From assembly GCA_018054125.1 (NCBI GenBank), contig JAGPKD010000001.1:27147-91146 (forward strand): a DNA stretch of 64,000 nucleotides. The letters are read 5' to 3'. This document shows, in pieces, positions 11,611 through 48,078 of the stretch. Source of the stretch: Candidatus Oleihabitans oleiphilus (GTDB taxonomy: Bacteria; Atribacterota; Phoenicimicrobiia; Phoenicimicrobiales; Stramentimicrobiaceae). Under the pieces are notes generated by a model. That model was not told the DNA's origin, made no database searches, and was given only the letters and a program-made list of their open reading frames with translations. Positions within the stretch are counted from its first letter, which is position 1. Every line of letters starts with the position of its first letter. Position numbers and translations under genes: made by a program.

Positions 11611-11730
11611 AAGTTAAACAAGAATACCCTCACTATTCTTACTTATTCACTTATACAGTTGTTTTTTATTTGACTTTCTTCCTATCAGTTCGTATTATTG
11701 AAATTACGACATTCGTAATATATAGGGTAG

Positions 11731-11904
11731 GTATATCGTATTACGTATAACGTATACCGTTAAAATTAGTCGTTGGTCGTTAGTATCTGGTATTTAGTTT
11801 ACCTATTACTTATTACCGGTTACTTATTACTGAATTGGCTCCTCGCAATGACAAAAATCGTATACCGTTAAAATACAGTCGCTAGTCGGAAGTTATTTCA
11901 GGGA
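11731..11904 (+). repeat. family A composite element, copy A1 (lacks left arm), upstream of the MarR gene
   Basis: Carries cgtattacgtataacgtataccgttaaaattagtcgttggtcgttagtatctggtatttagtt...ctcctcgcaatgacaaaa...agtcggaagttatttcaggg, which is shared with A2-A5. Confidence 0.8.
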
Positions 11905-12622: not shown

Positions 12623-12815
12623 CCTCCTGATGACAAAATTGTATATTGTATTACGTATAACGTATACCGTTAAAATTAGTTGTTGGTCGTTAGTATCTGG
12701 TATTTAGTTTGCCTATTACTTATTACCGGTTACTTATTACTGAATTGGCTCCTCGCAATGACAAAAATCGTATACCGTTAAAATACAGTCGTTAGTCGGA
12801 AGTTATTTCAGGGAG
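12623..12815 (+). repeat. family A element, copy A2, upstream of the P-type ATPase
   Basis: Over 90% identical to A1 across ~190 bp. Confidence 0.8.
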
Positions 12816-16651: not shown

Positions 16652-18940
16652 ATGGGTTGTGATGTTAAGGAAATTATTCAGGAATTAGAGAATGATTACA
16701 CCATTCGTCCTTATTTAACGGCATTAGAGCATCTACCAGCACAGGAAGCCCGTTTAGCTGATTTTCCTGATTGGTTGGATAAAGCATTGGTTAATCAATT
16801 AAAACAAGATGGTATTACCAGTCTCTATACTCATCAAGCCAGTGCCCTGAAGGCAGTTAATGATGGTCAGAACATAGTGGTAGTTACCCCTACTGCCTCG
16901 GGCAAAACTCTCTGTTACAATTTACCAGTTTTAGATAAAATTATGAAGGAGCCGGAAAGCCGAGCACTTTATCTTTTTCCCACCAAAGCCCTTTCTCAGG
17001 ATCAGTTAAGAGAACTTTACCGTCTGATAGAGGCATTAGATAAACCAATAAATACTTTCACTTATGATGGAGATACCCCGGTCTCAGCACGTTCTGCTAT
17101 CCGCAACCAGGGTCATATTATAGTTACCAATCCGGATATGTTACATACTGGAATATTGCCCCATCATACCAAGTGGTATAGATTATTTCAGAATTTAAAA
17201 TATGTGGTCATGGATGAAATTCATATTTATCGTGGTGTATTCGGAAGTCATATTGCTAATGTCCTACGCCGACTAAGGCGGATTTGTGAATTTTATGGGG
17301 CAAAACCGCAGTTTATCTGTTGTTCTGCTACTATTGCCAATCCTCTGGAATTGGCAGAAAAGATCACAGAGGAGAAATTCACCTTAATTAATAATAATGG
17401 TGCACCCAGCGGGGAGAAGTATTTTCTGTTCTACAATCCGCCGGTGGTAAACAGACCACTGGGTATTCGTAAAAGCCTGATTAAAGAGACCGCTCGGCTG
17501 GTGAGTAAATTTTTAAATCACGATATCCAAACCATTGTTTTTGCTCGCAGTCGCCTGACCACTGAACTATTAACCAGTTATCTCAAGGATTATTTAACCA
17601 AAATTGGGCAGGACCGGGATTTAGTTAGAGGGTATCGCGGAGGTTATCTACCCAATTTACGTCGAGAAATTGAAAAAGGACTCAAAGAAGGACTTATAAA
17701 AGGGGTAATCAGCACCAATGCCCTGGAATTAGGGGTGGATATCGGGCAGCTGGATGCCTGTTTTATTGCTGGTTATCCAGGCACCATTGCCAGTACCTGG
17801 CAACAGGCTGGTAGAGCTGGTAGACGTACTCATTCCTCAGTTGCTGTTCTGGTGGCTTCCAGTATTCCCCTGGATCAATACATTATCAATTCCCCTGATT
17901 ACTTTTTTAAAGAGACACCGGAGAACGCCGTAATTGATGCCAACAATTTAAGTATTTTAATCAGTCACATCAAATGCGCTGCTTTTGAACTTCCTTTTCG
18001 AGATGGCGAAAAATTTGGTTCAGAAGAGCTGGAAGAAATATTACAATTTCTGGAGGAAAAAGGTTTCATTCATTTCACCCAGCATAAATGGCACTGGATG
18101 AGTGAGGCTTATCCTGCTGATGAAATCAGTTTACGCAGTGCTTCTCCTGAAAATTTTGCTATTATTGATTTAGAAAAAGGTGAAAACAAGGTTATCGGAG
18201 AGATAGATCGGGAAAGTGCTCCCACTACCATCTACGAAGGTGCCATTTATATTCATGAAGGTGAACAATATACTATTACCAAACTGGATTATGATGATTA
18301 TAAGGCTTATGCCAAAAAGGTAGATGTTAACTATTACACTGATGCCCAGGTGGAAAGTCATATCAAGGTTCTGGATGTCTTTGAGGGAAAAGAGGAAGAA
18401 AATATTAAACACCAGTATGGGGAGATAGCTATTACTACTATCTCCACCAGGTATAAAAAGGTAAAATTCTATACCCATGAAAATCTGGGTTATGGGAAAA
18501 TTAATTTACCGGCCGAAGATATGCATACCACTGCTTACTGGCTGATTCTCTCAGAGGCATTTTCAAATCTGGCGGGAGGGAAGATGTCTTCTGGATTTAC
18601 CTTTGATTTAGGGGGAGGTTTATTAGCCCTCTCTAATATCATGGTTAATGTCACTCCCTTATTTATTATGTGTGACCCTAAAGATATCAGGGCGGTAGCT
18701 CAAGTCCGTTCTCCTTTTACTGATTTACCAACCCTTTTTATTTATGATAATTATCCCGGGGGAGTGGGTTTTAGTGAGAAAATTTTCGAGTTTCGGGATA
18801 AAATTTTGAGGGCTGCTCGAGATTTGATTGAAAATTGTGGTTGTGAGGAAGGTTGTCCCTCCTGTGTTGGCCCTATTAATCAGGTAGGAAATAACGGTAA
18901 ACAGAGTGCCCTTTTTATTCTGAAGGAGGCAATTCACTGA
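16652..18940 (+). CDS. DEXH-box helicase with a C-terminal DUF1998 four-Cys domain (MrfA/YprA-like)
   Basis: Walker A (TPTASGKT), DEIH box and helicase C motifs are present. The C-terminus carries ENCGCEEGCPSCVGP. Size and architecture match B. subtilis MrfA. Confidence 0.8.
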   Translation: MGCDVKEIIQELENDYTIRPYLTALEHLPAQEARLADFPDWLDKALVNQLKQDGITSLYTHQASALKAVNDGQNIVVVTPTASGKTLCYNLPVLDKIMKEPESRALYLFPTKALSQDQLRELYRLIEALDKPINTFTYDGDTPVSARSAIRNQGHIIVTNPDMLHTGILPHHTKWYRLFQNLKYVVMDEIHIYRGVFGSHIANVLRRLRRICEFYGAKPQFICCSATIANPLELAEKITEEKFTLINNNGAPSGEKYFLFYNPPVVNRPLGIRKSLIKETARLVSKFLNHDIQTIVFARSRLTTELLTSYLKDYLTKIGQDRDLVRGYRGGYLPNLRREIEKGLKEGLIKGVISTNALELGVDIGQLDACFIAGYPGTIASTWQQAGRAGRRTHSSVAVLVASSIPLDQYIINSPDYFFKETPENAVIDANNLSILISHIKCAAFELPFRDGEKFGSEELEEILQFLEEKGFIHFTQHKWHWMSEAYPADEISLRSASPENFAIIDLEKGENKVIGEIDRESAPTTIYEGAIYIHEGEQYTITKLDYDDYKAYAKKVDVNYYTDAQVESHIKVLDVFEGKEEENIKHQYGEIAITTISTRYKKVKFYTHENLGYGKINLPAEDMHTTAYWLILSEAFSNLAGGKMSSGFTFDLGGGLLALSNIMVNVTPLFIMCDPKDIRAVAQVRSPFTDLPTLFIYDNYPGGVGFSEKIFEFRDKILRAARDLIENCGCEEGCPSCVGPINQVGNNGKQSALFILKEAIH

Positions 18941-18942
18941 CT

Positions 18943-20238
18943 ATGGATTTAAAGGATCGGCTGGAGAAGATTGAGAGTTTAAAAAGAAAGGTTCAGCAAG
19001 TTAATAATAATCACCAAAAGAGCAGCTTTTCTTATTGGAAAGCCAGAACGCCTCTTTCCATTTCTGAGGTTATCACAGGGAATCTTATGGCTACCCCCTA
19101 TGGTTCCTGTTTTTTTACCGAAAAGTGTATTCCGTTAGATAGTTATTTTGGTGAACTTTCTCTCTTAGATATGGTGAATTATTTTCCTTCAGGATTGGAT
19201 TTATTGATACCAAAATTTAAAGGGGAAAATAGTAATATTCAATTAGAAGATCTACTATTTTTTGATACCGAGACTACTGGATTGGCAGGAGGTTCTGGAA
19301 CTTACATTTTTTTATTAGGGCTGGGTTATTTTAAGGGAGACTCCTTTTGGGTTAGACAATATTTTATGTCAGACTACCATGAAGAAGAGGCCTTATTATG
19401 GGCAGTAAACCAGTTTTTTGCTCAGGGTTTTAAATTACTGGTTTCTTATAATGGGAAAAGTTATGATTATCCCTTACTGGAGACCCGTTATATTATGATG
19501 CGTCTCCCTTTACAATTAAACACTACTTATCATCTTGATTTATTATTCCCCACCAGAAGATTATGGAAGAGAAGATTACAAGACTGTTCTTTACCTCATA
19601 TAGAAAAGAAGATACTCAATATTTTTAGAGAGGAAGACCTCCCGGGCTACCTTATTCCTCAGGTCTATTTCCGTTATCTACAGGATAAGGATGCTCGTCC
19701 TCTCAAAACAGTCTTTGCCCATAATTTACAGGATATTGTTTCTCTGGCTATTTTGACTGCCCGGATTGGACAGATTTTTCAGGACCAGGACCCATTACGC
19801 AGGGTAAGATCGGGGTTGGATCTCTTTAGTATGGGCAAGATTTATGAGGGAAACAAAGATTTTCAATATAGCAGTAGATGTTATGAAGAGGCTTTAAATG
19901 GTAACTTATCAGAGGAAGAATCACTGGAAGCATTAAAATTATGTTCCTTTGCCTATAAAAAACAGGGGGAATGGAAGAAGGCCGAGCAAGCCTGGTATGA
20001 CCTTATTTCCTTGAGCCGGGGGAATAGGGAATTTATTTTTTATCCCTATGAAGAATTAGCTAAATATTATGAGCATATCCTGAAAGACTATTGGCAGGCA
20101 GAGAGGATAGTAGAGGAGGCTCTGTCCAGATTGGAACAGGAAAGTAGGAAAGAGGAAAATATGAAACAATGGCAACAGGCTCTATATCACCGTCTGGAAA
20201 GAATAAAAAGAAAACAGAAAACAAGAAGGAGTATTTGA
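18943..20238 (+). CDS. DEDDh 3'-5' exonuclease with C-terminal TPR-like region (MrfB/YprB-like)
   Basis: Exo I motif (FFDTETTGL), Exo II-like (YNGKSYDYPLL) and H..D (AHNLQD) are present. It starts 3 bp after the helicase stop. Confidence 0.7.
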   Translation: MDLKDRLEKIESLKRKVQQVNNNHQKSSFSYWKARTPLSISEVITGNLMATPYGSCFFTEKCIPLDSYFGELSLLDMVNYFPSGLDLLIPKFKGENSNIQLEDLLFFDTETTGLAGGSGTYIFLLGLGYFKGDSFWVRQYFMSDYHEEEALLWAVNQFFAQGFKLLVSYNGKSYDYPLLETRYIMMRLPLQLNTTYHLDLLFPTRRLWKRRLQDCSLPHIEKKILNIFREEDLPGYLIPQVYFRYLQDKDARPLKTVFAHNLQDIVSLAILTARIGQIFQDQDPLRRVRSGLDLFSMGKIYEGNKDFQYSSRCYEEALNGNLSEEESLEALKLCSFAYKKQGEWKKAEQAWYDLISLSRGNREFIFYPYEELAKYYEHILKDYWQAERIVEEALSRLEQESRKEENMKQWQQALYHRLERIKRKQKTRRSI

Positions 20239-25972: not shown

Positions 25973-28018
25973 CTATAAAATGTAGCTAAAAGAGTCATTT
26001 CCTCTAAGCTTAAGCACTTTTTCCAGGTCTTTTTTTCCTATTACTCCCATTTCTAGTAATATTTGACCCAAAGGCTTAGGGTAAAACTTTTGAGCCCTTA
26101 AAGCCTCTATCAGCTGTTCCTCCTGGATTAAACCGAGACTTAAAAGTTTTTCTCCTAAGCGAGGGAGAGAAGAAACGTATTGTTCGTTAAAACGTTCCAG
26201 CGCTTCCTTAATAAGGGAAGGATTGGCTAAGACTGTCGATAATTCGTCCACTTGCAGCTCTTTTTTAATTTCTTCTCTAACTTCTGTAGAAAGAGGGGCT
26301 CCAACGGCTAAAATCACTAACTTTTCAGTTATAACTACCGGTACAGTGTGATATTTTTTAAAAATTTCGAGCATATTCGGGGTTATGTTTTCTATTCTAA
26401 CCAGGTAATCGTCTAACTCTATATGACCGATTTTTAAGGCTTCTCCTAAAACTTGAGTCAATTCTTCCTGGGAAATAATCCCCTCTTTAAGTAAAAACTC
26501 TCCTATTTTTTCTCCCCTTTCTTTTGCCTCTTTCAAGCTTTTAGCTAAAGTCTCTGGCTCTATAATTTGTTTTTCTAACATCAAATCACCTAACTTTCGT
26601 TGATAACGAAACAATACTTCCGGCGGAAGATAGGTGTGTTTAGTTTTCTGCCAACGAGGACGAGTTTGGGGAAAACCAAAAAGGGCTATTCTCCAGGCGC
26701 TAAGAGTAGCTAAAAAATTTATTACATTTCCCCAGATAGTGCGTAAGGGTAAAAGAGGAGGAACAAGACAACCAGCTACCGCTGACCGCCATCCATAAAC
26801 TTTTTTTAGAGCAATACCCCGCATAATTTGGCGTTCCAGCATGAAAAAAGTTAACCCTACACTTACTCCCCAAGAAAGCGACCCTTTAGGATAAACAGGA
26901 GGAACATCATAGAGTAAAGAAAGAATAAAATAGGCGAAAATTACATATCCGGGAACGGTAAGAAGATTACCATATTTGGCTTTCCAATCACGGAAAAGCC
27001 CATATTTGGCCATAAAACTAAAATTTTTACTTTTAATAACTTTCCAGAAAGAAAAGCTCTGGAAAGAAATACCATAGATCCAGCGCGATTTCTGTTTGAC
27101 TGCCTCGTGTAGAGTGTTGGGGAAAATCTCTCTGGTAGCTATGTATTCGGTAATTATTCTACCATCATCCAGTATCCTCTGGACACCTTCTAGAAAAAAG
27201 TGGGTAAAAATCCCCAATTCAGCAAGATGGTAGGATAATTTATAATCCTCAGTTATACTGCCTTCTTCGAAGAGCTCATATTTTCCTAATTTATCCAAAA
27301 CGGAATGGGAGAAAACAAAACCAGTCCCAGCAGAGGGAACCATAGCGCCACTTGCCTCTCGGGCTAAGAGACCTCGATAATGGTTCTCCGCAAATTCGTC
27401 AGCATAAGTAGAAGAAGTAATAAACTTAAAGAAAGTACGCCAGGTAGGATAGGGTTGAAGAGGAAAGACTGGTAGCTGTACCACTTCATATTGAAAGCTC
27501 AGGTAATTGGCTAACTTAAAAGAGGTAGGATGGATCACATCTTCGGCATCGTGCACGATAAAAGAAGCAAAACGAAGGTGTTTTTCTTTTTCCAAATTTA
27601 GAATAGAACTGAGCAGTTGATTAAGATTCTGACCTTTACTGGTTGGTCCCGGTTTAGAATTGACTACCGCATGCACATTGGGGTATTTTTTTGCTAAGAT
27701 TTGCACTTCTTCGCAGGTAGATGGGTCATTAGGATAAACCCCGATAAAAACATGGAAAAGGGAGAGAGGGTAATTCACCGAGTGAATTAAGTTATCAATC
27801 ATCGGGCCAATTACTTCTGCCTCATTCCAGGCGGGAATTAAAATCGCCAGCAGGCGTCGGGGGACACTATCTAAGTCTTTCATCTGGAGGCGATTTTTAA
27901 CTTTTTTCCGCCCACCACCATAGTAATAGATGTCCCAGAAGAGGTCGTCCAGGCTAAAGACAATAAAGAGAAAAGCAATAATAAACCCCAGGTAGTAGAG
28001 ACATTCTTCTATAAACAT
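25973..28018 (-). CDS. NfrB-like family 2 glycosyltransferase with TM region and two tandem C-terminal MshEN (GspE-N-like, c-di-GMP-binding) domains
   Basis: GT2 catalytic core (ILIPAWNEAEVIG; HDAED) and several TM segments. The C-terminal 24-residue MshEN motifs include RLGEKLLSLGLIQEEQLIEALRAQ and KIGEFLLKEGIISQEELTQVLGEAL. Confidence 0.7.
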   Translation of the reverse strand: MFIEECLYYLGFIIAFLFIVFSLDDLFWDIYYYGGGRKKVKNRLQMKDLDSVPRRLLAILIPAWNEAEVIGPMIDNLIHSVNYPLSLFHVFIGVYPNDPSTCEEVQILAKKYPNVHAVVNSKPGPTSKGQNLNQLLSSILNLEKEKHLRFASFIVHDAEDVIHPTSFKLANYLSFQYEVVQLPVFPLQPYPTWRTFFKFITSSTYADEFAENHYRGLLAREASGAMVPSAGTGFVFSHSVLDKLGKYELFEEGSITEDYKLSYHLAELGIFTHFFLEGVQRILDDGRIITEYIATREIFPNTLHEAVKQKSRWIYGISFQSFSFWKVIKSKNFSFMAKYGLFRDWKAKYGNLLTVPGYVIFAYFILSLLYDVPPVYPKGSLSWGVSVGLTFFMLERQIMRGIALKKVYGWRSAVAGCLVPPLLPLRTIWGNVINFLATLSAWRIALFGFPQTRPRWQKTKHTYLPPEVLFRYQRKLGDLMLEKQIIEPETLAKSLKEAKERGEKIGEFLLKEGIISQEELTQVLGEALKIGHIELDDYLVRIENITPNMLEIFKKYHTVPVVITEKLVILAVGAPLSTEVREEIKKELQVDELSTVLANPSLIKEALERFNEQYVSSLPRLGEKLLSLGLIQEEQLIEALRAQKFYPKPLGQILLEMGVIGKKDLEKVLKLRGNDSFSYIL

Positions 28019-28462
28019 AGCTAGATTAGTTTTTTACTCCGTTTCTGTTTTCAGTTTAGAAAATATTATTCAGCTTGTGCTAAAGGCTTAAACGATTATC
28101 TCTTTTACACCTTTGTTATAACTTATTTTTACAAGCTTGGATATATTATCAATTTTTTTAAAAAAAAGCAAATTATTGAGTTAATTAAATTTTAAACTAA
28201 CAGTTAACTAGACCTTATAAACAGACCAGACTATCGATTTTGGTAAATTTTTCCAATATGCGCATCTAAAGAGAAGAATTGTTTATGACTTAAATAGCTC
28301 CTTCCTAGCATTTTTGTTAAAAAATGTTTTACCAGAAAGAGGAAACAAGATATAATTATAAAATATATTTTATAATAATTTTATAATACTGGGATTTTAA
28401 AAAAATCCTGTATTCTTATTTCATATAAACAAGATAGCATTTTCTTGAATTGTATTTTCTTT

Positions 28463-28497
28463 GAGGGGCTTCAGAGGATACCTCCCCTGAATATACT
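28463..28497 (+). repeat. family B hairpin (variant)
   Basis: gaggggcttcagaggatacctcccctgaatatac. Confidence 0.7.
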
Positions 28498-28666
28498 AAT
28501 TGTCTAGCAATTTCGATACTATATAAGATAAACTACCAGAGTAAAAGGTCATTGCGAGGGAAGCACTCAACATTATTTGAGTGCTTCCCGTGGCAATCTC
28601 ATACTATTATACCGGTATCTTTGGTCTTATAACTGAGAATCAATAACTGACTACTTTCCATTAATA

Positions 28667-28895
28667 CTGCGGGCGTAAGTGAATGAGATTGCTTCGTCGC
28701 TATGCTCCTCGCAATGACAAAATAGTATATCGTATTACGTATAACGTATATCGTTAAAATTAGTCGCTGGTCATTAATAGCTGGCATTTAGTTTCCTATT
28801 GCTCATTACTTATTACTAGTTACTTATTACTGATTAGTCTCCTTGCAATGGCTAAAAGATTATATCGTATTACGTATATAAGATATATCGAATTT
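28667..28895 (+). repeat. family A element, copy A3 (diverged), upstream of the HAD/radical SAM operon
   Basis: Shares gtgaatgagattgcttcgtcgct.tgctcctcgcaatgacaaaa and the tacgtata/ttagtcg/ttacttattac blocks. Confidence 0.7.
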
Positions 28896-28948
28896 TATGT
28901 TATGTCTTTTATCTAATGAAACCGAATACAGTTATGCTCACCATCATA

Positions 28949-29003
28949 ATCCTCTCCCTTAGAAGGGAGAGGTAAGGTGAGGGGGATAAATTATTACCTT
29001 ATT
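28949..29003. repeat. family C unit abutting the HAD gene start
   Basis: cctctcccttagaagggagaggtaaggtgagggggataaattattacctt. Confidence 0.8.
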
Positions 29004-29008
29004 ACTTT

Positions 29009-29707
29009 ATGGGGAGGAATAATGCCATTCGTACCATTATCTTTGACCTTGATGATACCTTAATACAAACCTCTAAAATTTACCATCAAGCCCGGGATGA
29101 ATTTGCCCGGATTATGTCTAGCCTGGGATTTCCCAGGGAGGAAGTTCTGGAAAAGCTTGATGAAATTGATATCAAGCATATCCAGGAACAGGGTTTTGCC
29201 AAAGAAAGGTATCCTTTAAGCCTGATTAAGACCTATCATTATTACTGTGAGTGTTCTGGTGAGAAAATTGACCTTCAAACAGAAAAGGAAATTGCTGCCA
29301 TAGGCTGGAAAGTTTTTCAGCAAATTCCAGAGCAGGTAGAGGGGGCTGATTTAGTATTAAATAATCTAAAAGGACGTTATCTCTTAATACTGGCAACTCT
29401 GGGAGATCCGGAAATACAACACCAGAAGATAAGGTATTCTGGATTACAGTCTTATTTTTCGGCTATCTATGTCTTAAATTATAAAACTGCTGAGGAATAT
29501 CTCCAAATTATTAAACAACATAATCTCAAGAAAGAAAAAACCTGGATTATTGGTAATAGTATTCGCTCTGATTTAAATCCTGGATTAGAACTGGGATTAA
29601 ATTGTATTTTAATACCTGCTCCTACCTGGAAATTTGAGGAAGAAAAACCAATTTCCAATCATTATTTACAATTAAAGTCTCTGGTAGAAGTATTGAATTA
29701 TCTATGA
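29009..29707 (+). CDS. HAD-superfamily hydrolase
   Basis: Motif I IIFDLDDTL and motif IV IIGNSIRSD. Confidence 0.6.
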   Translation: MGRNNAIRTIIFDLDDTLIQTSKIYHQARDEFARIMSSLGFPREEVLEKLDEIDIKHIQEQGFAKERYPLSLIKTYHYYCECSGEKIDLQTEKEIAAIGWKVFQQIPEQVEGADLVLNNLKGRYLLILATLGDPEIQHQKIRYSGLQSYFSAIYVLNYKTAEEYLQIIKQHNLKKEKTWIIGNSIRSDLNPGLELGLNCILIPAPTWKFEEEKPISNHYLQLKSLVEVLNYL

Positions 29708-32386: not shown

Positions 32387-32620
32387 AATTATTTATTACT
32401 CCCTATAAGCAGCATTTTGCCCTTAACATTAATTTATTTTTCTTTTTCCCACCTATGACGCATAAAGCACCTTTAAGATTTGATTTTCAATATTTAGTGT
32501 GCTAAAATTATGCACTACAGCAAAAATATATAAAATAGTGCTTTTAAAAATAGAACATAATTTTTTAAATAAGGAATAATATAGTTATCAGTTTGCAGTT
32601 AACTGTTTTCAGATAAAAGA

Positions 32621-32878
32621 TGCCGGTATAAGTGAATGAGATTGCTTCGTCGCTTTGCTCCTCGCAATGACAAAAAGAATATATCGTTTAACGTATAAGG
32701 TATATCGTTAAAATTAGTCGCTGGTTGTTAGTCGTTAGTATCTGGCATTTAGTTTGCCTATTACTTATTACTGGTTACTTATTACTGGATTGGCTCTTCG
32801 CAATGACAAAATGGTATACCGTATAACGTATAACGTATATCGTTTAAATTCAGTTGCTAGTCAGAAGTTATTTCAGGG
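32621..32878 (+). repeat. family A element, copy A4 (full length), upstream of the GGDEF gene
   Basis: Near-identical to A5, starting tgccggtataagtgaatgagattgcttcgtcgctttgctcctcgcaatgacaaaa. Confidence 0.85.
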
Positions 32879-32913
32879 GTTATCAAGGGGAAGGATTCCC
32901 CTTGAACATCTTG
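32872..32913 (+). repeat. family B hairpin fused to the 3' end of A4
   Basis: ttcaggggttatcaaggggaaggattccccttgaacatcttg. Confidence 0.8.
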
Positions 32914-35677: not shown

Positions 35678-35920
35678 CTGCCGGTATAAGTGAATGAGAT
35701 TGCTTCGTCGCTTTGCTCCTCGCAATGACAAAAAGAATATATCGTTTAACGTATAAGGTATCTCGTTAAAATTAGTCGTTGGTCGTTAGTATCTGGCATT
35801 TAGTTTGCTTATTACTGGTTACTTATTACTGAATTGGCTCCTCGCAATGACAAAATGGTATATCGTATTACGTATAACGTATATCGTTTAAATACAGTTG
35901 CTAGCCGGAAGTTATTTCAG
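35678..35920 (+). repeat. family A element, copy A5 (full length), upstream of the HD-GYP gene
   Basis: Near-identical to A4. Confidence 0.85.
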
Positions 35921-35950
35921 GGGTTTCAGGGGAATCTTCCCCTGAATATT
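35916..35950 (+). repeat. family B hairpin, 30 nt upstream of the HD-GYP gene start
   Basis: ttcaggggtttcaggggaatcttcccctgaatattc. Confidence 0.8.
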
Positions 35951-40872: not shown

Positions 40873-40928
40873 ATTCCTCTCCCTTAGAAGGGAGAGGTAA
40901 GGTGAGGGTGATAAATATTACCTTAAGG
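40873..40928. repeat. family C unit immediately 3' of the large helicase gene
   Basis: cctctcccttagaagggagaggtaaggtgagggtgataaatattaccttaag. Confidence 0.8.
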
Positions 40929-43900
40929 GTAATTCAGGGGTTTCAGGGGAATTTCCCCTGACCGTTGGAATTTCAACTGAAACCGTTTCCGCCAGCATTA
41001 ATCCTCTGCCAGGAATTACTCTTAACAACTTTTCTTTAAGATAATTATCAGATAAATCAGCTAAATCAGATAAACCCGAATTATGGTTATTTTTATCCTG
41101 CTCCTGCATAATTTTCTGCATACTTTTTCTCAGTTTTCCGAGATGATACCAGAGACGATGGTAGGTGGCATCCTCATCATCTGGCCAGAGAGTATCGATA
41201 AGCTGCTCATAGGGTATTACCTTCCCCTTATTTTGAGCCAGAAAAAGAATCAATTGATAGCCTATTTTGTTTACTGCTATCTCTTTACCCAGAAAGAGAA
41301 TCTGATCAGGTCGATGAGGGTTAATGGTTATTACTGCCTTTATTTCGTTTTTTATTTCACCTTTTGTTTCACCTTTTATTTCGCTTTTTAAAGGCAGTGG
41401 GAAATTTTTGTTCAGCTGTGCTTCAGGGTTTTGATTATGTTTATAATCTGAAAGGAGATTTGATTTGTTTAATTTATTTCTATGTATCTTATTATTTTTA
41501 TTACTATTTATATTATTTTTATTACTCTTGCTATAGGAGCTTGAATTAAGCCACTCCTTTATTTTCTTAATCAATAAATCAGGCAGTAATGGTTGCAGCT
41601 GTTTTTCCGATAATTCCCTGAGGCATTGTTCATCCTGGTATCCTTCCTGCACCAGTCTCTGGAGGTAGCCTCGACTCAAGCCAGGGATATGCAATTTTGC
41701 CAGTGGGAGGCCGGCCGGTTCAACACCAGCAATTAATCTGGCGGAAAGTTGTTGAATTTTTTCTAAATCCCCAGCTCTATCTTCTCTCCAGCCGACCCCA
41801 ATAGCAAGAGCGGCTAAGGCATCGGCCAGCCAGGAAAATCCCTCCCCCATTTTCTGAATAGCTCCTCCCAAAAGGCCATAATCTTGCTCTATTTCTTTTA
41901 ATTCCCTGCCAGTAATCCAGTCATACATGAGGAGGGTATTTTTTAGAGCTAGATACTTTTTTAGTTCATTTTTGGATGGTGCCTCTTTTAGTTCAGAGGG
42001 ATTGCTATTGATATTATTGATATTTAAATTATTCTGAAAAATTAGTTTATCCTCTTCCTGCTGTTCAAAAATTAGGTTCAACATACGCAGGCGTAAAAAT
42101 TCTTTCCATTTATGGGTGAGGGACTTTTTATTTTTAATCACTCTGCTTTCCCTTCCTGGATAATCAGTAAAAAATTCTTCCCCATCACTGCTGGTAGCAA
42201 TTAAGAAGAGAATTTCCAGTTCACTGCTATTTTCTTTCTGACTCTCCTTAATCCATTTTAAAAAATGGAGATAGGTTGGAAAAGAGATGCCTTTGGAGGT
42301 TACCAATCGTCCCATTTCGGTAAGCTGGCAGTATTTTCCCTCCTGGATAGTGATAAGTTGTTCACTTTCCAGCTGTTGGAGATAAGCCAGAAGCTCTGCT
42401 TCGCTATAGGTCTGGCTGAATTGATGATGCCAGAAAGTTTGTTTTTTGGTGTCGTTACCTGTTTTTAACAGCTGACAGATATCCTGGAAAGAATCACAGT
42501 CCAGGGCAATACGGTATAACAGAAAGGTCAATATATCTTTTTGGACGATAATGGGTCTTTCTTTCCAGATTTCCAGAAGAGCAGGACCAGGACTAACGGT
42601 GGTAACATTAGTAAGAGCAGCAATATCCTTTTTGGTATATGGTGTTGAAGTTTGGTCCTCATTAAGGGTATTTTCCGAAATTGGAACATCTTTCACATAA
42701 TGCCTTATTGGCTTTTCTTTTTGTTTTTCTTGCTGTTGCTGAAGAGCAGGATAAAAATAGCAAGGCAACCATGTTTCCCCATCTTTAGAGTAGTCCGGGA
42801 AATAGAGCTTCTGATAAGCAGTTAGCTCAATAAGGGAAGGAGCCAGAAAGATAATTCTACCAAAGGAACAAGCAGGATTAAGTCGACCAGCTCGTCCACC
42901 CATATTTTCTACTTCAGAAAAAGTGAGCATACTCTGGTAATAATTTGTCATATATCTATCGTATCTATTATGTTTATCGCTTTTTTGCCCGGAGACAATT
43001 TTTTGTCCGGTTAGAATAACATTGTTTACCGGTAAATTAACTCCCATAGCCAGAGTACCGGTGGCACATACGATTTTCAGTTCACCAATGCGCACTGCTT
43101 CTTCAATAATATGTCGTTCTGGCCAGGAAAGATCGGCACAGTGATAAGCAATTCCCTTCTGGAGAAGATTTATGAGCTCCTCCTTGGAGGTGGAATCCTC
43201 TATTATTAGCATCTGCTCCATAGCTCTTTGGGCGGGATTCAGGGTAAACTGGCTTGCCAGCCAGCTACTCCATAAACGCACTTCTTTCTTGGTGGAAAAG
43301 AAGATCAGGTTTGATTCCTGTTGTTCAATGAGAAATTGCAAGGTAGCTTTAAGATAGCTGGCTAAATTACATTCCTGAACATCTTCTGGAGGAAAGAAAA
43401 ATTCTTTGCCTGTTATTTTGCTATTATGTTCTACATAATGATAAATTCCTTCCCGAACAATTCCCTTGCGTAGCTCTACTGGTCGATAGGAAGACCAGAG
43501 TAGTTTAGCATCAAGCCAGGTAGCCAGTGCTAAGATATGTTCAGTAAGTGCGGAAAGGGCAATAATCCGAATAGCAGGATAGTTAGCTTTAAGATAATTA
43601 AAATTGCTTTCTAAACGTGGCCCGCGTTGGGAGTCATTGATTAACTGAATCTCATCAGCCACAATTAAGGAAACATTATGAAGGCATTGCGGATACTGGA
43701 GAAGAAAATAGTAGAATTTTTCGTAGACCAGAATGGCAATATGAAAATTGCCCTGCCTGATATCCTGGTCATCATGACGGTGATCACGAGAAGAAAGTTT
43801 GATTTTTAAACCGAGTGAGCGGTAAAGATGAACAAAATGCTGATATTTTTCTTCTGCTAAAATTCGCAAGGGGACTAAGTATATTACTTTGTTATGGAAA

Positions 43901-44211
43901 GATATTTCCTGCAGAGCAGCCATTTCACCTACCAAAGTCTTACCTGAAGAGCTGGGAGAGACAACTAAAAGATTTTCTGGCTTTTCTCGGGATAGGGGAG
44001 TTGCTTCATATAGATTAGCTTCATATAGATTAGAAAAAAAATTAGGATGAGAAGAGCGGAGAAGATTAAACTGGCGTACTGCCTTTTCTTGCACTGGCAG
44101 AAGGAAGTCAGAGTAATGCTCCTTCCAGACCTTAATAATATAATGGGGAATACCAAAGTATTCCAGTTGCTCCATCTTCATATTTTCCAGCATTGTTACT
44201 AAATACCTCAA
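40918..44211 (-). CDS. Ski2/Hel308-like SF2 DNA helicase (1097 aa) with an N/K-rich low-complexity linker and a C-terminal OmpR/PhoB-type winged-helix DNA-binding domain
   Basis: Hel308-like N-terminus (LLPVQEKAV...LLVVSPSSSGKTL), DEIQ box and motif VI (MGGRAGR). The C-terminal trans_reg_C-like segment is GYQLILFLAQNKGKVIPYEQLIDTLWPDDEDATYHRLWYHLGKLRKSM. Confidence 0.75.
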   Translation of the reverse strand: MRYLVTMLENMKMEQLEYFGIPHYIIKVWKEHYSDFLLPVQEKAVRQFNLLRSSHPNFFSNLYEANLYEATPLSREKPENLLVVSPSSSGKTLVGEMAALQEISFHNKVIYLVPLRILAEEKYQHFVHLYRSLGLKIKLSSRDHRHDDQDIRQGNFHIAILVYEKFYYFLLQYPQCLHNVSLIVADEIQLINDSQRGPRLESNFNYLKANYPAIRIIALSALTEHILALATWLDAKLLWSSYRPVELRKGIVREGIYHYVEHNSKITGKEFFFPPEDVQECNLASYLKATLQFLIEQQESNLIFFSTKKEVRLWSSWLASQFTLNPAQRAMEQMLIIEDSTSKEELINLLQKGIAYHCADLSWPERHIIEEAVRIGELKIVCATGTLAMGVNLPVNNVILTGQKIVSGQKSDKHNRYDRYMTNYYQSMLTFSEVENMGGRAGRLNPACSFGRIIFLAPSLIELTAYQKLYFPDYSKDGETWLPCYFYPALQQQQEKQKEKPIRHYVKDVPISENTLNEDQTSTPYTKKDIAALTNVTTVSPGPALLEIWKERPIIVQKDILTFLLYRIALDCDSFQDICQLLKTGNDTKKQTFWHHQFSQTYSEAELLAYLQQLESEQLITIQEGKYCQLTEMGRLVTSKGISFPTYLHFLKWIKESQKENSSELEILFLIATSSDGEEFFTDYPGRESRVIKNKKSLTHKWKEFLRLRMLNLIFEQQEEDKLIFQNNLNINNINSNPSELKEAPSKNELKKYLALKNTLLMYDWITGRELKEIEQDYGLLGGAIQKMGEGFSWLADALAALAIGVGWREDRAGDLEKIQQLSARLIAGVEPAGLPLAKLHIPGLSRGYLQRLVQEGYQDEQCLRELSEKQLQPLLPDLLIKKIKEWLNSSSYSKSNKNNINSNKNNKIHRNKLNKSNLLSDYKHNQNPEAQLNKNFPLPLKSEIKGETKGEIKNEIKAVITINPHRPDQILFLGKEIAVNKIGYQLILFLAQNKGKVIPYEQLIDTLWPDDEDATYHRLWYHLGKLRKSMQKIMQEQDKNNHNSGLSDLADLSDNYLKEKLLRVIPGRGLMLAETVSVEIPTVRGNSPETPELPLR
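40933..40962 (+). repeat. family B hairpin overlapping the 3' end of the large helicase ORF
   Basis: ttcaggggtttcaggggaatttcccctga. Confidence 0.7.
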
Positions 44212-45130: not shown

Positions 45131-45290
45131 ATGCGGGTATAAGTGGATGAGATTGCCACGCCCTGCTTTCAGCAGGGCTCACAATGACCACCCCCTCTTT
45201 TGTCACTGCGAGGAGCGAAGCGACGAAGCAGTCTCCTTCAATTACACCAGCCGCATTAATTTAATATTCATTTCGCGCGGAGGAAAAAAG
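45131..45290 (-). repeat. inverted, rearranged family A left-arm fragment
   Basis: gtcactgcgaggagcgaagcgacgaagcagtctcc is the reverse complement of the A left arm. It is shared with 48486..48612. Confidence 0.5.
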
Positions 45291-45439: not shown

Positions 45440-45886
45440 TTAGCGGGAGGATTTGTGCAAATCTTTGGTAAGTTCCTGAGCCTTTTTAAAAAAATCTCTA
45501 GCCGCTTTTAAAGCGAAACTAGCTCCTTCTTCCGACCATCGGTCATAATAATCGGCGTCCTCTCTTAGTCTTTTACTTTTTCCCAGAGCTTCTATTAAGC
45601 TGCCTGGGAGCAACCTGGTCTCTACATAAAGAGCCCGTATAGCCACAATAAGACAATGGTGGCTGTGCTCTCGGTAGTTCTTGGCAAACAAAAGGGCTCT
45701 GGCGGAATGGAACATAGAGTAATAGGCCTGGATAGTGGCCCATTTGTAATCTTTATCCTCAAAAGTTTTTTCCGCCCTTTCCAGGTCCCGCTGAGCTGTC
45801 CCCAGGGTTTTGGACAAGAGGGCTTTCCCCCGCGGGAATTCCCTTATTTTATTTTTCTTTAAACATTGCTCAAATTCTGGATTCAT
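45440..45886 (-). CDS. HEPN-domain protein (toxin of a HEPN/MNT module)
   Basis: R-x4-H motif (YREHSHH) in a ~148-aa helical protein. It overlaps the upstream nucleotidyltransferase gene. Confidence 0.6.
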   Translation of the reverse strand: MNPEFEQCLKKNKIREFPRGKALLSKTLGTAQRDLERAEKTFEDKDYKWATIQAYYSMFHSARALLFAKNYREHSHHCLIVAIRALYVETRLLPGSLIEALGKSKRLREDADYYDRWSEEGASFALKAARDFFKKAQELTKDLHKSSR

Positions 45887-46427
45887 CTTTAGACTCCCAT
45901 AGGGTTATGCCGTGTTCTATCTCTTCAAAAAATATTGATTCTTCCTTTTCCATCTGGATAAACTGGGTCGAGTTGCGAATAATTGGTTGAAGTTTTTTTC
46001 TGAGGTCGCTTTTCTCTATCTTCTCTTCAATGGCCTTTGGACTATCGGCTAGGATAAAAAGGTCTATATCACTACTGTCTATATCTTCCCCCCGGGCACA
46101 ACTGCCAAACAGGACTATTTTCTTAGAGAGTGGTTTCAATTTATTTACCAGGGGCTGTAAGAGTACAGTAGTCTTGAGGACCTTCAATTGCTTAATAACG
46201 GGATTGTGATAATCAACCGAATAAAGATAGATCTTGGCCTTCTTTTCCCGCAGGACGAGCTTTTCTTTAGCAAGTTTACGAAGAGAGAGATTAACTCCCG
46301 CTCGGCTAATTCTAGTGGCTTTTTCGATTTCCTTAGCCAGAAATTGCTTACCCGGGCTTTGGATAAGAAAGTTTAAGACCTTCTGGGCATTAGTTGATAT
46401 AAGGCTATTGTTCATATAAGGCTCCAT
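45870..46427 (-). CDS. minimal nucleotidyltransferase (MNT) with an N-terminal wHTH, antitoxin-like partner of HEPN
   Basis: GSCARGEDIDSSDIDLFI nucleotidyltransferase signature with an N-terminal winged-helix. Confidence 0.7.
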   Translation of the reverse strand: MEPYMNNSLISTNAQKVLNFLIQSPGKQFLAKEIEKATRISRAGVNLSLRKLAKEKLVLREKKAKIYLYSVDYHNPVIKQLKVLKTTVLLQPLVNKLKPLSKKIVLFGSCARGEDIDSSDIDLFILADSPKAIEEKIEKSDLRKKLQPIIRNSTQFIQMEKEESIFFEEIEHGITLWESKDESRI

Positions 46428-46972: not shown

Positions 46973-47199
46973 TCGCTATCACCTCCCATACCCATTCCAT
47001 AGGAGAATTTACTTTTACCTTCAGCATACCTCTAAATAAATTTTATACTTCTACTCTTTCCATCACAATACCTGTCACGTTTATATTTCAAAAAATTGAC
47101 TTATAATATATCTTAGTCTATAATATAAACAACATACCTGCCACGCCTCTCAACGATGCGCACCCTGGCGGGTTTTTCTTTTTAATAAGAGTAGGTTAT

Positions 47200-48078
47200 A
47201 TGAAATATTCCAAGCCACCGACAACATTCCAGGAACAAATCGATATTCTAATAAAACGTGGTTTAAATGTTGAAGATCCTGAAAAGGCTTTATTAAATAT
47301 AAGTATAATAAACTATTATAGATTAAGTTCTTATTTCCCTCCCTTTCAACTCAATGATCATCAGTTTAAAGAGAATACTTCAATTGATAGCATTTTTGAA
47401 TTATATGATTTTGATAAAAAATTAAGAGCTCTTATCTTTAGAGCCCTGGAAAATGTTGAGATTACTTTACGTACCAAAATAGCCTATTATTTCTCTCATA
47501 CCTATAGTCCATCTGCTTACTGTGATCCTTGTAATTTCTCTCCAGGTTTTAATCATGCAGATTGGCTTGCTAAACTAGAAGAAAGTATAAATAGAACTCA
47601 TGAGGATTATGTAAAAGAATTTTTTAAGGAATATGATGAAGAAAAAGTTCTTCCTATTTGGATAGTTATTGAGATAATATCATTTGGCCAGCTTTCCGTT
47701 ATGCTTAGAGGCTTGAAAAGATCTGACCGAAAACGTATTGCAGAAGATTGTTTTGGAATTGATGAAGCAAGACTTTATTCCTGGGTGCATACCTTAGTAT
47801 ATATTAGAAATTTATGTGCTCATTACAGCCGTATATGGAATAGAACATTAGCCATAAAGCCTATGATTACAAAAAGATTGCCTGAATGGAAAGATATTTC
47901 AAATCATAAAATATTCTGTGTTTTTCTGATATTTAAAAAGCTTATGATTATACCAGAACAGTGGGAAGCCTGGAGAAATGATTTAATTAGCCTTTTAGAA
48001 GAATATAAAAATATTAATACAAAAATGATGGGCTTCCCGGATGATTGGCAAGAAAGACTTAATAGCCATAAAATATAG
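47200..48078 (+). CDS. Abi_2 (AbiD/AbiF-like) abortive-infection protein
   Basis: N-terminus FQEQIDILIKRGLNVEDPEKALLNISIINYYRLSSYFPPF matches the Abi_2 family signature. Confidence 0.75.
   Translation: MKYSKPPTTFQEQIDILIKRGLNVEDPEKALLNISIINYYRLSSYFPPFQLNDHQFKENTSIDSIFELYDFDKKLRALIFRALENVEITLRTKIAYYFSHTYSPSAYCDPCNFSPGFNHADWLAKLEESINRTHEDYVKEFFKEYDEEKVLPIWIVIEIISFGQLSVMLRGLKRSDRKRIAEDCFGIDEARLYSWVHTLVYIRNLCAHYSRIWNRTLAIKPMITKRLPEWKDISNHKIFCVFLIFKKLMIIPEQWEAWRNDLISLLEEYKNINTKMMGFPDDWQERLNSHKI

Follow-up and report, generated by a model that had tools for sequence, protein, structure and literature searches.

A gene in a 64,000-nucleotide stretch of DNA from Candidatus Oleihabitans oleiphilus (contig JAGPKD010000001.1; the whole stretch analysed is referred to as the window) is an ordinary Atribacterota member of the known NfrB family, whose membrane-bound synthases of sugar polymers are switched on by cyclic di-GMP (c-di-GMP). 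Its product is best explained, at a probability that we put at roughly 0.75, as a c-di-GMP-activated NfrB-family synthase with two MshEN_N modules that works without the NfrA/YbcH pair. The NfrB family is taken here as the c-di-GMP-activated synthases that combine a glycosyltransferase family 2 (GT2) domain with MshEN, as represented by the NCBIfam models NF008411, NF012033 and NF01130x. The comparator from E. coli is NfrB of strain K-12 MG1655 (b0569), the glycosyltransferase of the NfrBA-YbcH exopolysaccharide system.

The membership in the family is evident from profile searches and from direct alignment. The top NCBIfam matches of the 681-aa protein are NfrB-family models (E-values of 1e-110 to 1e-116), and BLASTP aligns it collinearly with E. 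coli NfrB (residues 6-671 with 14-713, 31% identity, E-value 2e-89); along with the Pfam matches, these results bear out the original prediction of an NfrB-like GT2 protein with C-terminal receptor modules of the MshEN type. The protein is identical to a 681-aa open reading frame (ORF) in NCBI/GenBank, which is annotated as 'phage adsorption protein NrfB' of a Candidatus Atribacteria metagenome-assembled genome (MAG), and several MAGs carry contigs with the identical protein, e.g., JAXGYG010000006.1. Residue numbers that derive from the homologue search, the phmmer search of the PDB, the alignment of 71 homologues, the AlphaFold2 (AF2) model and BLASTP are one lower than the true numbers, since those queries lacked Met1.

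The GT2 domain contains the motifs that are characteristic of processive synthases, i.e., DAED (157-160), TED (256-258) and, at its C-terminal edge, QKSRW (309-313), the residues of which are invariant in the alignment of 71 homologues. AF2 predicts a long N-terminal helix (model residues 2-39) and, after the glycosyltransferase (GT) domain, helices at model residues 334-368, 380-407, 409-417 and 424-446, with a hydrophobic segment at 350-375. The DAED-type N-terminal catalytic domain and the transmembrane (TM) helices that had been proposed are thus present according to Pfam, motif scan, hydropathy and AF2. The full-length AF2 model is of high confidence (pLDDT 93.5, pTM 0.93), and its best PDB matches in Foldseek are BcsA, hyaluronan synthases, plant CesA and chitin synthases; neither sequence nor fold search retrieved a solved NfrB structure from the PDB. 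BcsA (PDB 4HG6, 4P00, 5EJ1), the top structural match of the full-length model, is a processive membrane GT2 enzyme that is activated by c-di-GMP through a C-terminal receptor domain. However, its receptor is a PilZ domain, it has 8 TM helices and the partner BcsB, and its sequence identity to the Atribacterota protein is only ~14%.

The MshEN motif is defined by two 24-residue units, RLGxx(L/V/I)(L/V/I)xxG(L/V/I)(L/V/I)xxxxLxxxLxxQ, joined by 5 residues, and a complete MshEN domain comprises ~145 residues. The C-terminal region of the Atribacterota protein was searched with NF053729, the 53-residue 'c-di-GMP_motif' profile of NCBIfam, which matches twice above its cut-off of 38 bits: the isolated fragment of module 1 scores 50.2 bits (E-value 1.6e-13; 74.4 bits with a custom MshEN_N hidden Markov model (HMM)) and that of module 2 scores 52.5 bits (E-value 3.1e-14). 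The two MshEN_N motif pairs are real, far beyond chance, and all four 24-residue motifs that had been quoted are found in the translation. PF05157 matches once above its gathering score, at 534-611 (25.4 bits against a cut-off of 23.1; 28.7 bits on the isolated fragment), i.e., over the MshEN_C subdomain, to which phmmer matches PilB and PilF structures and for which AF2 gives an alpha/beta pattern. A linker of 9 residues leads from MshEN_C to module 2, which is followed by 9 further residues and the stop codon. The two motif pairs therefore stand, but the earlier description of two complete MshEN domains was overstated since the protein ends at 681 and the second copy lacks the MshEN_C half; only copy 1 is complete, and copy 2 is MshEN_N alone.

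Sequence, fold and motif provide three independent lines on which module 2 is a genuine MshEN_N. The relaxed regular expression of Wang et al. 2016 is matched by both of its halves, and a stricter pattern, derived from the consensus of the same work, by its first half as well. A profile of module 2 built from 26 homologues matches residues 7-61 of V. cholerae MshE (PDB 5HTL) with an E-value of 1.1e-14. The four-helix pattern is seen in both modules in the full-length AF2 model, and a separate AF2 model of residues 611-681, in which the four helices have pLDDT >90, superposes on c-di-GMP-bound MshE (5HTL) at 0.7 Å over 56 residues (34% identity, TMq 0.76). The top 14 Foldseek matches of module 2 are all MshEN-type; given the shortness of the domain, their E-values are weak (0.02 or higher).

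The receptor region resembles two other known systems in different ways. V. cholerae MshE, the defining c-di-GMP-binding MshEN, shares the 53-residue motif pair, the 5-residue spacer and the four-helix fold, whereas its MshEN is a single copy fused N-terminally to an ATPase. T. thermophilus PilF (PDB 6F8L, 8PDK), which has three tandem MshEN/GSPII domains, likewise carries consecutive MshEN-type modules in one chain and gives the best match to PDB sequences, with residues 470-671 aligned over PilF MshEN domain 2 and into the beginning of domain 3; the profile of module 2 matches all three PilF MshEN domains. The output of PilF differs, as it is a type IV pilus secretion ATPase, and its copies are full MshEN domains with C-subdomains.

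The two-module layout is also seen in E. coli NfrB itself. Both proteins share the DxD, TED and QxxRW motifs, the N-terminal TM helix, the helices after the GT domain and the order MshEN_N, MshEN_C, second MshEN_N. Module 1 aligns with residues 488-540 of E. coli NfrB and module 2 with residues ~661-713, and NF053729 matches E. coli NfrB twice, with 54.0 bits at 488-539 and 47.3 bits in a C-terminal fragment. A single MshEN in E. coli that is duplicated in the Atribacterota protein, as the original prediction had it, is therefore not what the alignments give; this contrast follows the literature, not the sequence. The NfrB papers examined (PMC8669469, PMC8669472, PMC10211494) describe one MshEN domain, in which only residues 490-537 were mutated, and make no mention of the second MshEN_N module. 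The two proteins differ in their terminal module, which is fully canonical in the Atribacterota protein; in E. coli the first half-motif is degenerate, with loss of R-L-G (LFAEILTTLGHI), and the second half is canonical (PLGKFLVTEGVISQETLDRVLTIQ). Furthermore, the Atribacterota protein is 64 residues shorter, and its gene has no nfrA or ybcH downstream. The E. coli fragment 414-745, which binds c-di-GMP with a Kd of ~1 µM (PMC8669469, PMC8669472), spans both modules. The site equivalent to module 1 has been validated experimentally in E. coli, where G491L in module 1 and mutants of the GT active site abolish function (PMC8669469, PMC8669472).

The duplication is not special to this locus, since it is collinear in E. 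coli NfrB and present in many phyla. In a set of 120 database homologues together with E. coli NfrB, 46 proteins have two modules at 12 bits or more with the custom MshEN_N HMM, a group that comprises every one of the closest relatives (P0001-P0044, P0047) along with E. coli NfrB. The other 74 homologues are mostly of a Clostridia type of the same length, with a degenerate remnant, G.I.WEQAVLA....DIL.YMGL, at the place of module 2. Among 80 species-representative genome loci, the two-module form occurs in Atribacterota, Aquicultor, Chloroflexia, Chitinophagales, Acidobacteriota, Victivallales, Verrucomicrobia, Vulcanimicrobiota and Rickettsiales. Rows of three or more MshEN_N-like modules were observed in a Longimicrobiales MAG (L069), a Proteobacteria MAG (L084) and an Acidiferrales MAG (L076, an ORF of 982 aa). 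The homologues with two, rarely three, modules span about ten phyla, and the two-module layout is ancestral to the NfrB family, not a local invention.

The conservation of the residues that contact the ligand was compared between the modules in 29 two-module sequences of the subfamily, which range from 81% to ~43% identity to the Atribacterota protein, using V. cholerae MshE numbering. In module 2, G11 and G40 are present in all 29 sequences, R9, Q32 and L39 in 27, L25 and L54 in 26, and G18 in 25. Module 1 is more variable: position 9 is K, R or H, position 18 is E, G, Q, R or another residue, and position 32 is A, M or a gap. Both modules keep the contact residues in this subfamily, and their better retention in module 2 than in module 1 makes two c-di-GMP sites plausible; and the enzyme probably binds two c-di-GMP molecules per protomer, as judged from these residues. 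Mildly new is the suggestion that, in the Atribacterota-type clade, the terminal module would equal or surpass the validated one as a c-di-GMP site.

Among the alternatives, the one that survives best, unlikely as we hold it to be, is that only one module binds c-di-GMP and that the second MshEN_N is a structural, docking or oligomerisation element, a change that seems to have taken place in the Clostridia-type homologues and in part in E. coli NfrB. Module 2 of the Clostridia-type homologues (n=42) has lost the equivalents of R9, G11, Q32 and G40, yet the helical remnant is retained, which points to a ligand-independent role of the module. In the same direction, the second module of E. coli NfrB lacks RLG in its first half-motif, a G491L substitution confined to module 1 is enough to abolish infection of E. 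coli by phage N4, and (MshEN_N)2 arrangements or dimers are mentioned by Wang et al. 2016. However, a purely structural role does not predict that the ligand contacts of module 2 should be better conserved than those of module 1 down to ~43% identity, and an isolated MshEN_N of V. cholerae MshE binds c-di-GMP alone with a Kd of 0.35 µM (PMC5013675).

For the two-module synthase, we propose a mechanism in which a cytoplasmic-membrane GT2 enzyme, similar to BcsA and hyaluronan synthases, would processively polymerise a nucleotide-sugar into an exopolysaccharide. The synthase would be held inactive until c-di-GMP binds to the cytosolic receptor region, i.e., a full MshEN (module 1 plus MshEN_C) followed by a stand-alone four-helix MshEN_N module, and would then be activated allosterically, most likely as in E. 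coli NfrB and, by analogy, in BcsA. The ligand would be supplied by the cyclases of the cell; the nearby PAS-GAF-GGDEF protein is one candidate source, which its position does not single out. The polymer would presumably be secreted, and the synthase would work without the outer-membrane export pair NfrA/YbcH.

The prediction that no NfrA-like partner accompanies the gene agrees with the neighbourhoods, insofar as no NfrA- or YbcH-like ORF was found in the window or in any Atribacterota locus by single-sequence phmmer, which is weak for TPR/beta-barrel proteins; a partner elsewhere in the genome is possible. Matches to NfrA or YbcH were obtained only in loci of Acidobacteriota, Victivallales, Verrucomicrobia and Proteobacteria, and NfrA/YbcH-like ORFs and downstream genes for proteins of 1150-1340 aa adjoin only homologues from classical diderm phyla. 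The NfrB-like gene stands alone in five lineages, as judged from the neighbourhoods of the loci. Stand-alone homologues had been noted as "rare cases in Gram-positives" (PMC8669469). They are numerous in the present searches: more than 2,500 proteins fall at E-values of 0.001 or below among 8,000 candidates scored, and at least 596 genome matches were confirmed from two peptide patterns. Outside Proteobacteria, and without NfrA, the NfrB family is far commoner than the rare cases noted in 2021. The cultured representative of Atribacterota stains Gram-negative and has three membrane-like layers (PMC7736352). As a tentative extension, which we regard as possible and somewhat short of an even chance, the terminal module may be a second and possibly the principal c-di-GMP site, with a cooperative or two-threshold response, and the polymer may be exported without an NfrA-type porin despite the three membrane-like layers.

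Several observations weigh against the interpretation of the protein as a c-di-GMP-activated synthase that acts without partners. Its scores stay below the cut-offs of the NCBIfam equivalogs, far below in the case of the NfrB model NF008411 (369.7 against 1170), and also for NF012033 (386.2 against 537) and NF011305 (388.6 against 409); since all of them are missed, it is a family member for which functional equivalence to NfrB is not demonstrated. Module 1 is non-canonical, with Q484 in place of Gly18, A498 in place of Q32 and A527 in place of Q61, owing to which it fits neither the relaxed nor the stricter pattern; a Q at the Gly18 equivalent of module 1 is shared by E. coli NfrB, which still works. 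The protomer has only ~4-5 membrane helices, so that a self-sufficient translocation channel is an assumption. Additionally, no route for the polymer across the outer layers is evident at the locus, and a sugar-precursor or epimerase gene such as wecB, which would be linked to UDP-ManNAc as the substrate, was not found in the window. The coordinates of the gene, its domains and the nearby signalling genes are given in Table 1.

Table 1. Parts of the NfrB-family gene and nearby signalling genes in the window (positions of the window; residues of the encoded protein).
Feature	Position	Strand	Basis or remark
NfrB-family gene (GT2 synthase, TM helices, MshEN, extra MshEN_N), 681 aa	25973..28018	minus	ORF list and translation
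N-terminal hydrophobic helix, residues ~1-31, putative membrane anchor	27926..28018	minus	Kyte-Doolittle 19-mer mean up to 2.16
GT2 catalytic domain, residues 54-316	27071..27859	minus	PF13641 (Glyco_tranf_2_3), E-value 2.6e-43; PF13632, E-value 6.2e-24
Helical membrane region after the GT domain, residues ~335-447	26678..27016	minus	AF2 helices and hydropathy
MshEN_N module 1, residues 475-527: KLGDLMLEKQIIEPETLAKSLKEA, spacer KERGE, KIGEFLLKEGIISQEELTQVLGEA	26438..26596	minus	NF053729
MshEN_C alpha/beta subdomain, residues 534-611, single copy	26186..26419	minus	PF05157
MshEN_N module 2, residues 620-672: RLGEKLLSLGLIQEEQLIEALRAQ, spacer KFYPK, PLGQILLEMGVIGKKDLEKVLKLR	26003..26161	minus	NF053729; canonical c-di-GMP motif pair
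PAS x4-GAF-GGDEF diguanylate cyclase, 858 aa	33074..35650	plus	Pfam
PAS-GAF-HD-GYP phosphodiesterase, 496 aa	35980..37470	plus	PF13487 (HD_5), E-value 3.7e-39
PAS-GAF protein without output domain, 378 aa	37518..38654	plus	Pfam

The window has a GC content of ~37-38%, and the genes around the NfrB-like gene are housekeeping genes. The lower-coordinate side holds an arginine-biosynthesis operon and genes for MarR, a P-type ATPase, a helicase, NUDIX, cupins, an aminotransferase, an SDF symporter and LepB; the opposite flank has HAD, radical SAM, EamA and ZIP genes and, after these, the three PAS/GAF signalling genes, all three of which were confirmed by Pfam as they had been described. The cyclase retains an intact GGDEF motif, which an RxxD I-site (REVD) precedes by five residues (LREVDVICRIGGDEF), and the phosphodiesterase contains the motifs HDIGK and NGSGYPQG; both enzymes look catalytically intact from their motifs.

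These genes had given rise to the idea of a local c-di-GMP circuit, in which the synthase would be served by the PAS-GAF-GGDEF cyclase, the HD-GYP phosphodiesterase and the PAS-GAF protein that lie ~5-10 kb away. We consider a dedicated circuit of this kind improbable. Its appeal lies in the cyclase and phosphodiesterase genes, whose motifs are intact and which are only 5-9.5 kb away from that of the synthase, in a few family loci with an adjacent GGDEF gene (e.g., immediately downstream in locus L040) and in the position of the cyclase, which is kept in contig L002 of another MAG; this contig encodes an identical NfrB-like protein and shows 97.3% DNA identity over 14 kb. A precedent for a specific cyclase exists in E. 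coli, where NfrB is served by DgcJ through protein contact (PMC8669469). No cyclase gene is present in the neighbourhood of E. coli nfrB that was examined; local signalling in E. coli is independent of gene adjacency, and proximity is thus uninformative either way.

The inference of a circuit from proximity does not hold up, however, once the orthologues and the intervening genes are considered. Between the synthase and cyclase genes lie four others (HAD, radical SAM, EamA and ZIP) that are unrelated and of opposite orientation. The orthologues at 82%, 72% and 64% identity have neither a GGDEF nor an HD-GYP gene in the flanking DNA compared (up to 10 kb a side, contig permitting), nor do the other Atribacterota loci compared, and, in ~80 other family loci, a GGDEF gene lies within ~6 kb in only 6 and an HD-GYP gene in none. 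Furthermore, no conserved operon partners were detected: the neighbourhoods at 82%, 72%, 64%, 46% and 43% identity have nothing in common, either among themselves or with the window, and downstream lepB is common only to contigs of the same species among the six homologue neighbourhoods compared. Even contig L002 is collinear with the window only up to 35949, a point shortly beyond the cyclase and inside a dispersed repeat; the HD-GYP and PAS-GAF genes are missing there, replaced beyond the breakpoint by genes for a methyltransferase, a helix-turn-helix protein and a sigma-factor fragment. The cyclase itself has only soluble PAS, GAF and GGDEF matches, and inspection of its sequence reveals no hydrophobic membrane segment. 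DgcJ differs from this cyclase in having a membrane segment.

That the polymer is mainly a phage receptor or barrier, as the analogy with E. coli NfrB and phage N4 might suggest (PMC8669469, PMC8669472), is very unlikely, considering that no phage or defence linkage of the NfrB-like gene was seen, that NfrA, the protein receptor of N4, is absent and that the gene lies among housekeeping genes.

An intergenic repeat of ~250 nt is dispersed over the window in five copies on the minus strand (11700-11870, 12630-12780, 28600-28900, 32620-32910 and 35680-35950), with a partial match at 45198-45216 on the plus strand. Each copy contains an internal duplication, TATACGTAATACGATATA...TTTTGTCATTGCGAGGAGC, spaced ~120-135 nt apart, and an 18-mer of the repeat is present 9 times, with 0 expected. 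The NfrB-like, cyclase and HD-GYP genes have copies upstream, and the MarR gene has them on both sides. Loci of other Atribacterota lack the repeat, and no Rfam family matched it, either at the gathering score over the whole window or at a permissive threshold in the one copy scanned in this way (region 27900-29100); it looks like a lineage-specific element similar to miniature inverted-repeat transposable elements or repetitive extragenic palindromic sequences. As a regulatory element common to the synthase, cyclase and phosphodiesterase genes, and hence as evidence of their co-regulation, the repeat was considered and rejected: equally similar copies flank the unrelated MarR gene, the orthologous loci in other Atribacterota do not contain it, and it marks a synteny breakpoint. 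The synteny of the window with L002 (1-2057) breaks within the copy at ~35949, between the GGDEF and HD-GYP genes, which suggests a rearrangement at the repeat.

The NfrB-like gene and the divergent HAD gene are separated by an unusually long, AT-rich intergenic region of 990 bp (28019-29008). A search of this upstream region for riboswitches and other known RNAs gave no Rfam match at the gathering score or at an E-value of 5 or below. The only ORF called by others in the region (62 aa, 28599-28787) is probably not a real gene, since it overlaps the dispersed repeat.

Some features elsewhere in the window are recorded here in their own right. An abiF RNA motif (RF03085; 50.4 bits against a gathering score of 37 bits) lies at 47137-47173 on the plus strand, directly upstream of an Abi_2 (abortive-infection-like) gene at 47200-48078 on the same strand, and a nucleotidyltransferase gene is located at 45870-46427. 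The gene at 40918-44211 (minus strand, 1097 aa) encodes an unusual fusion, in which a DEAD-box helicase core is joined to archaeal helicase domain 4 and, at the C-terminus, to a DNA-binding Trans_reg_C domain of the OmpR type. At 16652-20238 (plus strand), a helicase of 762 aa that carries Hrq1-type WHD and MZB domains directly precedes an RNase_H_2-like protein of 431 aa, apparently as a gene pair.

For the locus itself, little depends on these results, since it encodes a recognisable NfrB homologue and the identical protein already bears that name in GenBank. A modest insight is gained at the level of the family: NfrB proteins generally carry an overlooked second MshEN_N after the known MshEN, which is canonical in many lineages and half-degenerate in E. 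coli. If both modules bind the ligand, synthases of the NfrB type would be two-site c-di-GMP sensors, which would bear on the reading of their activation thresholds.

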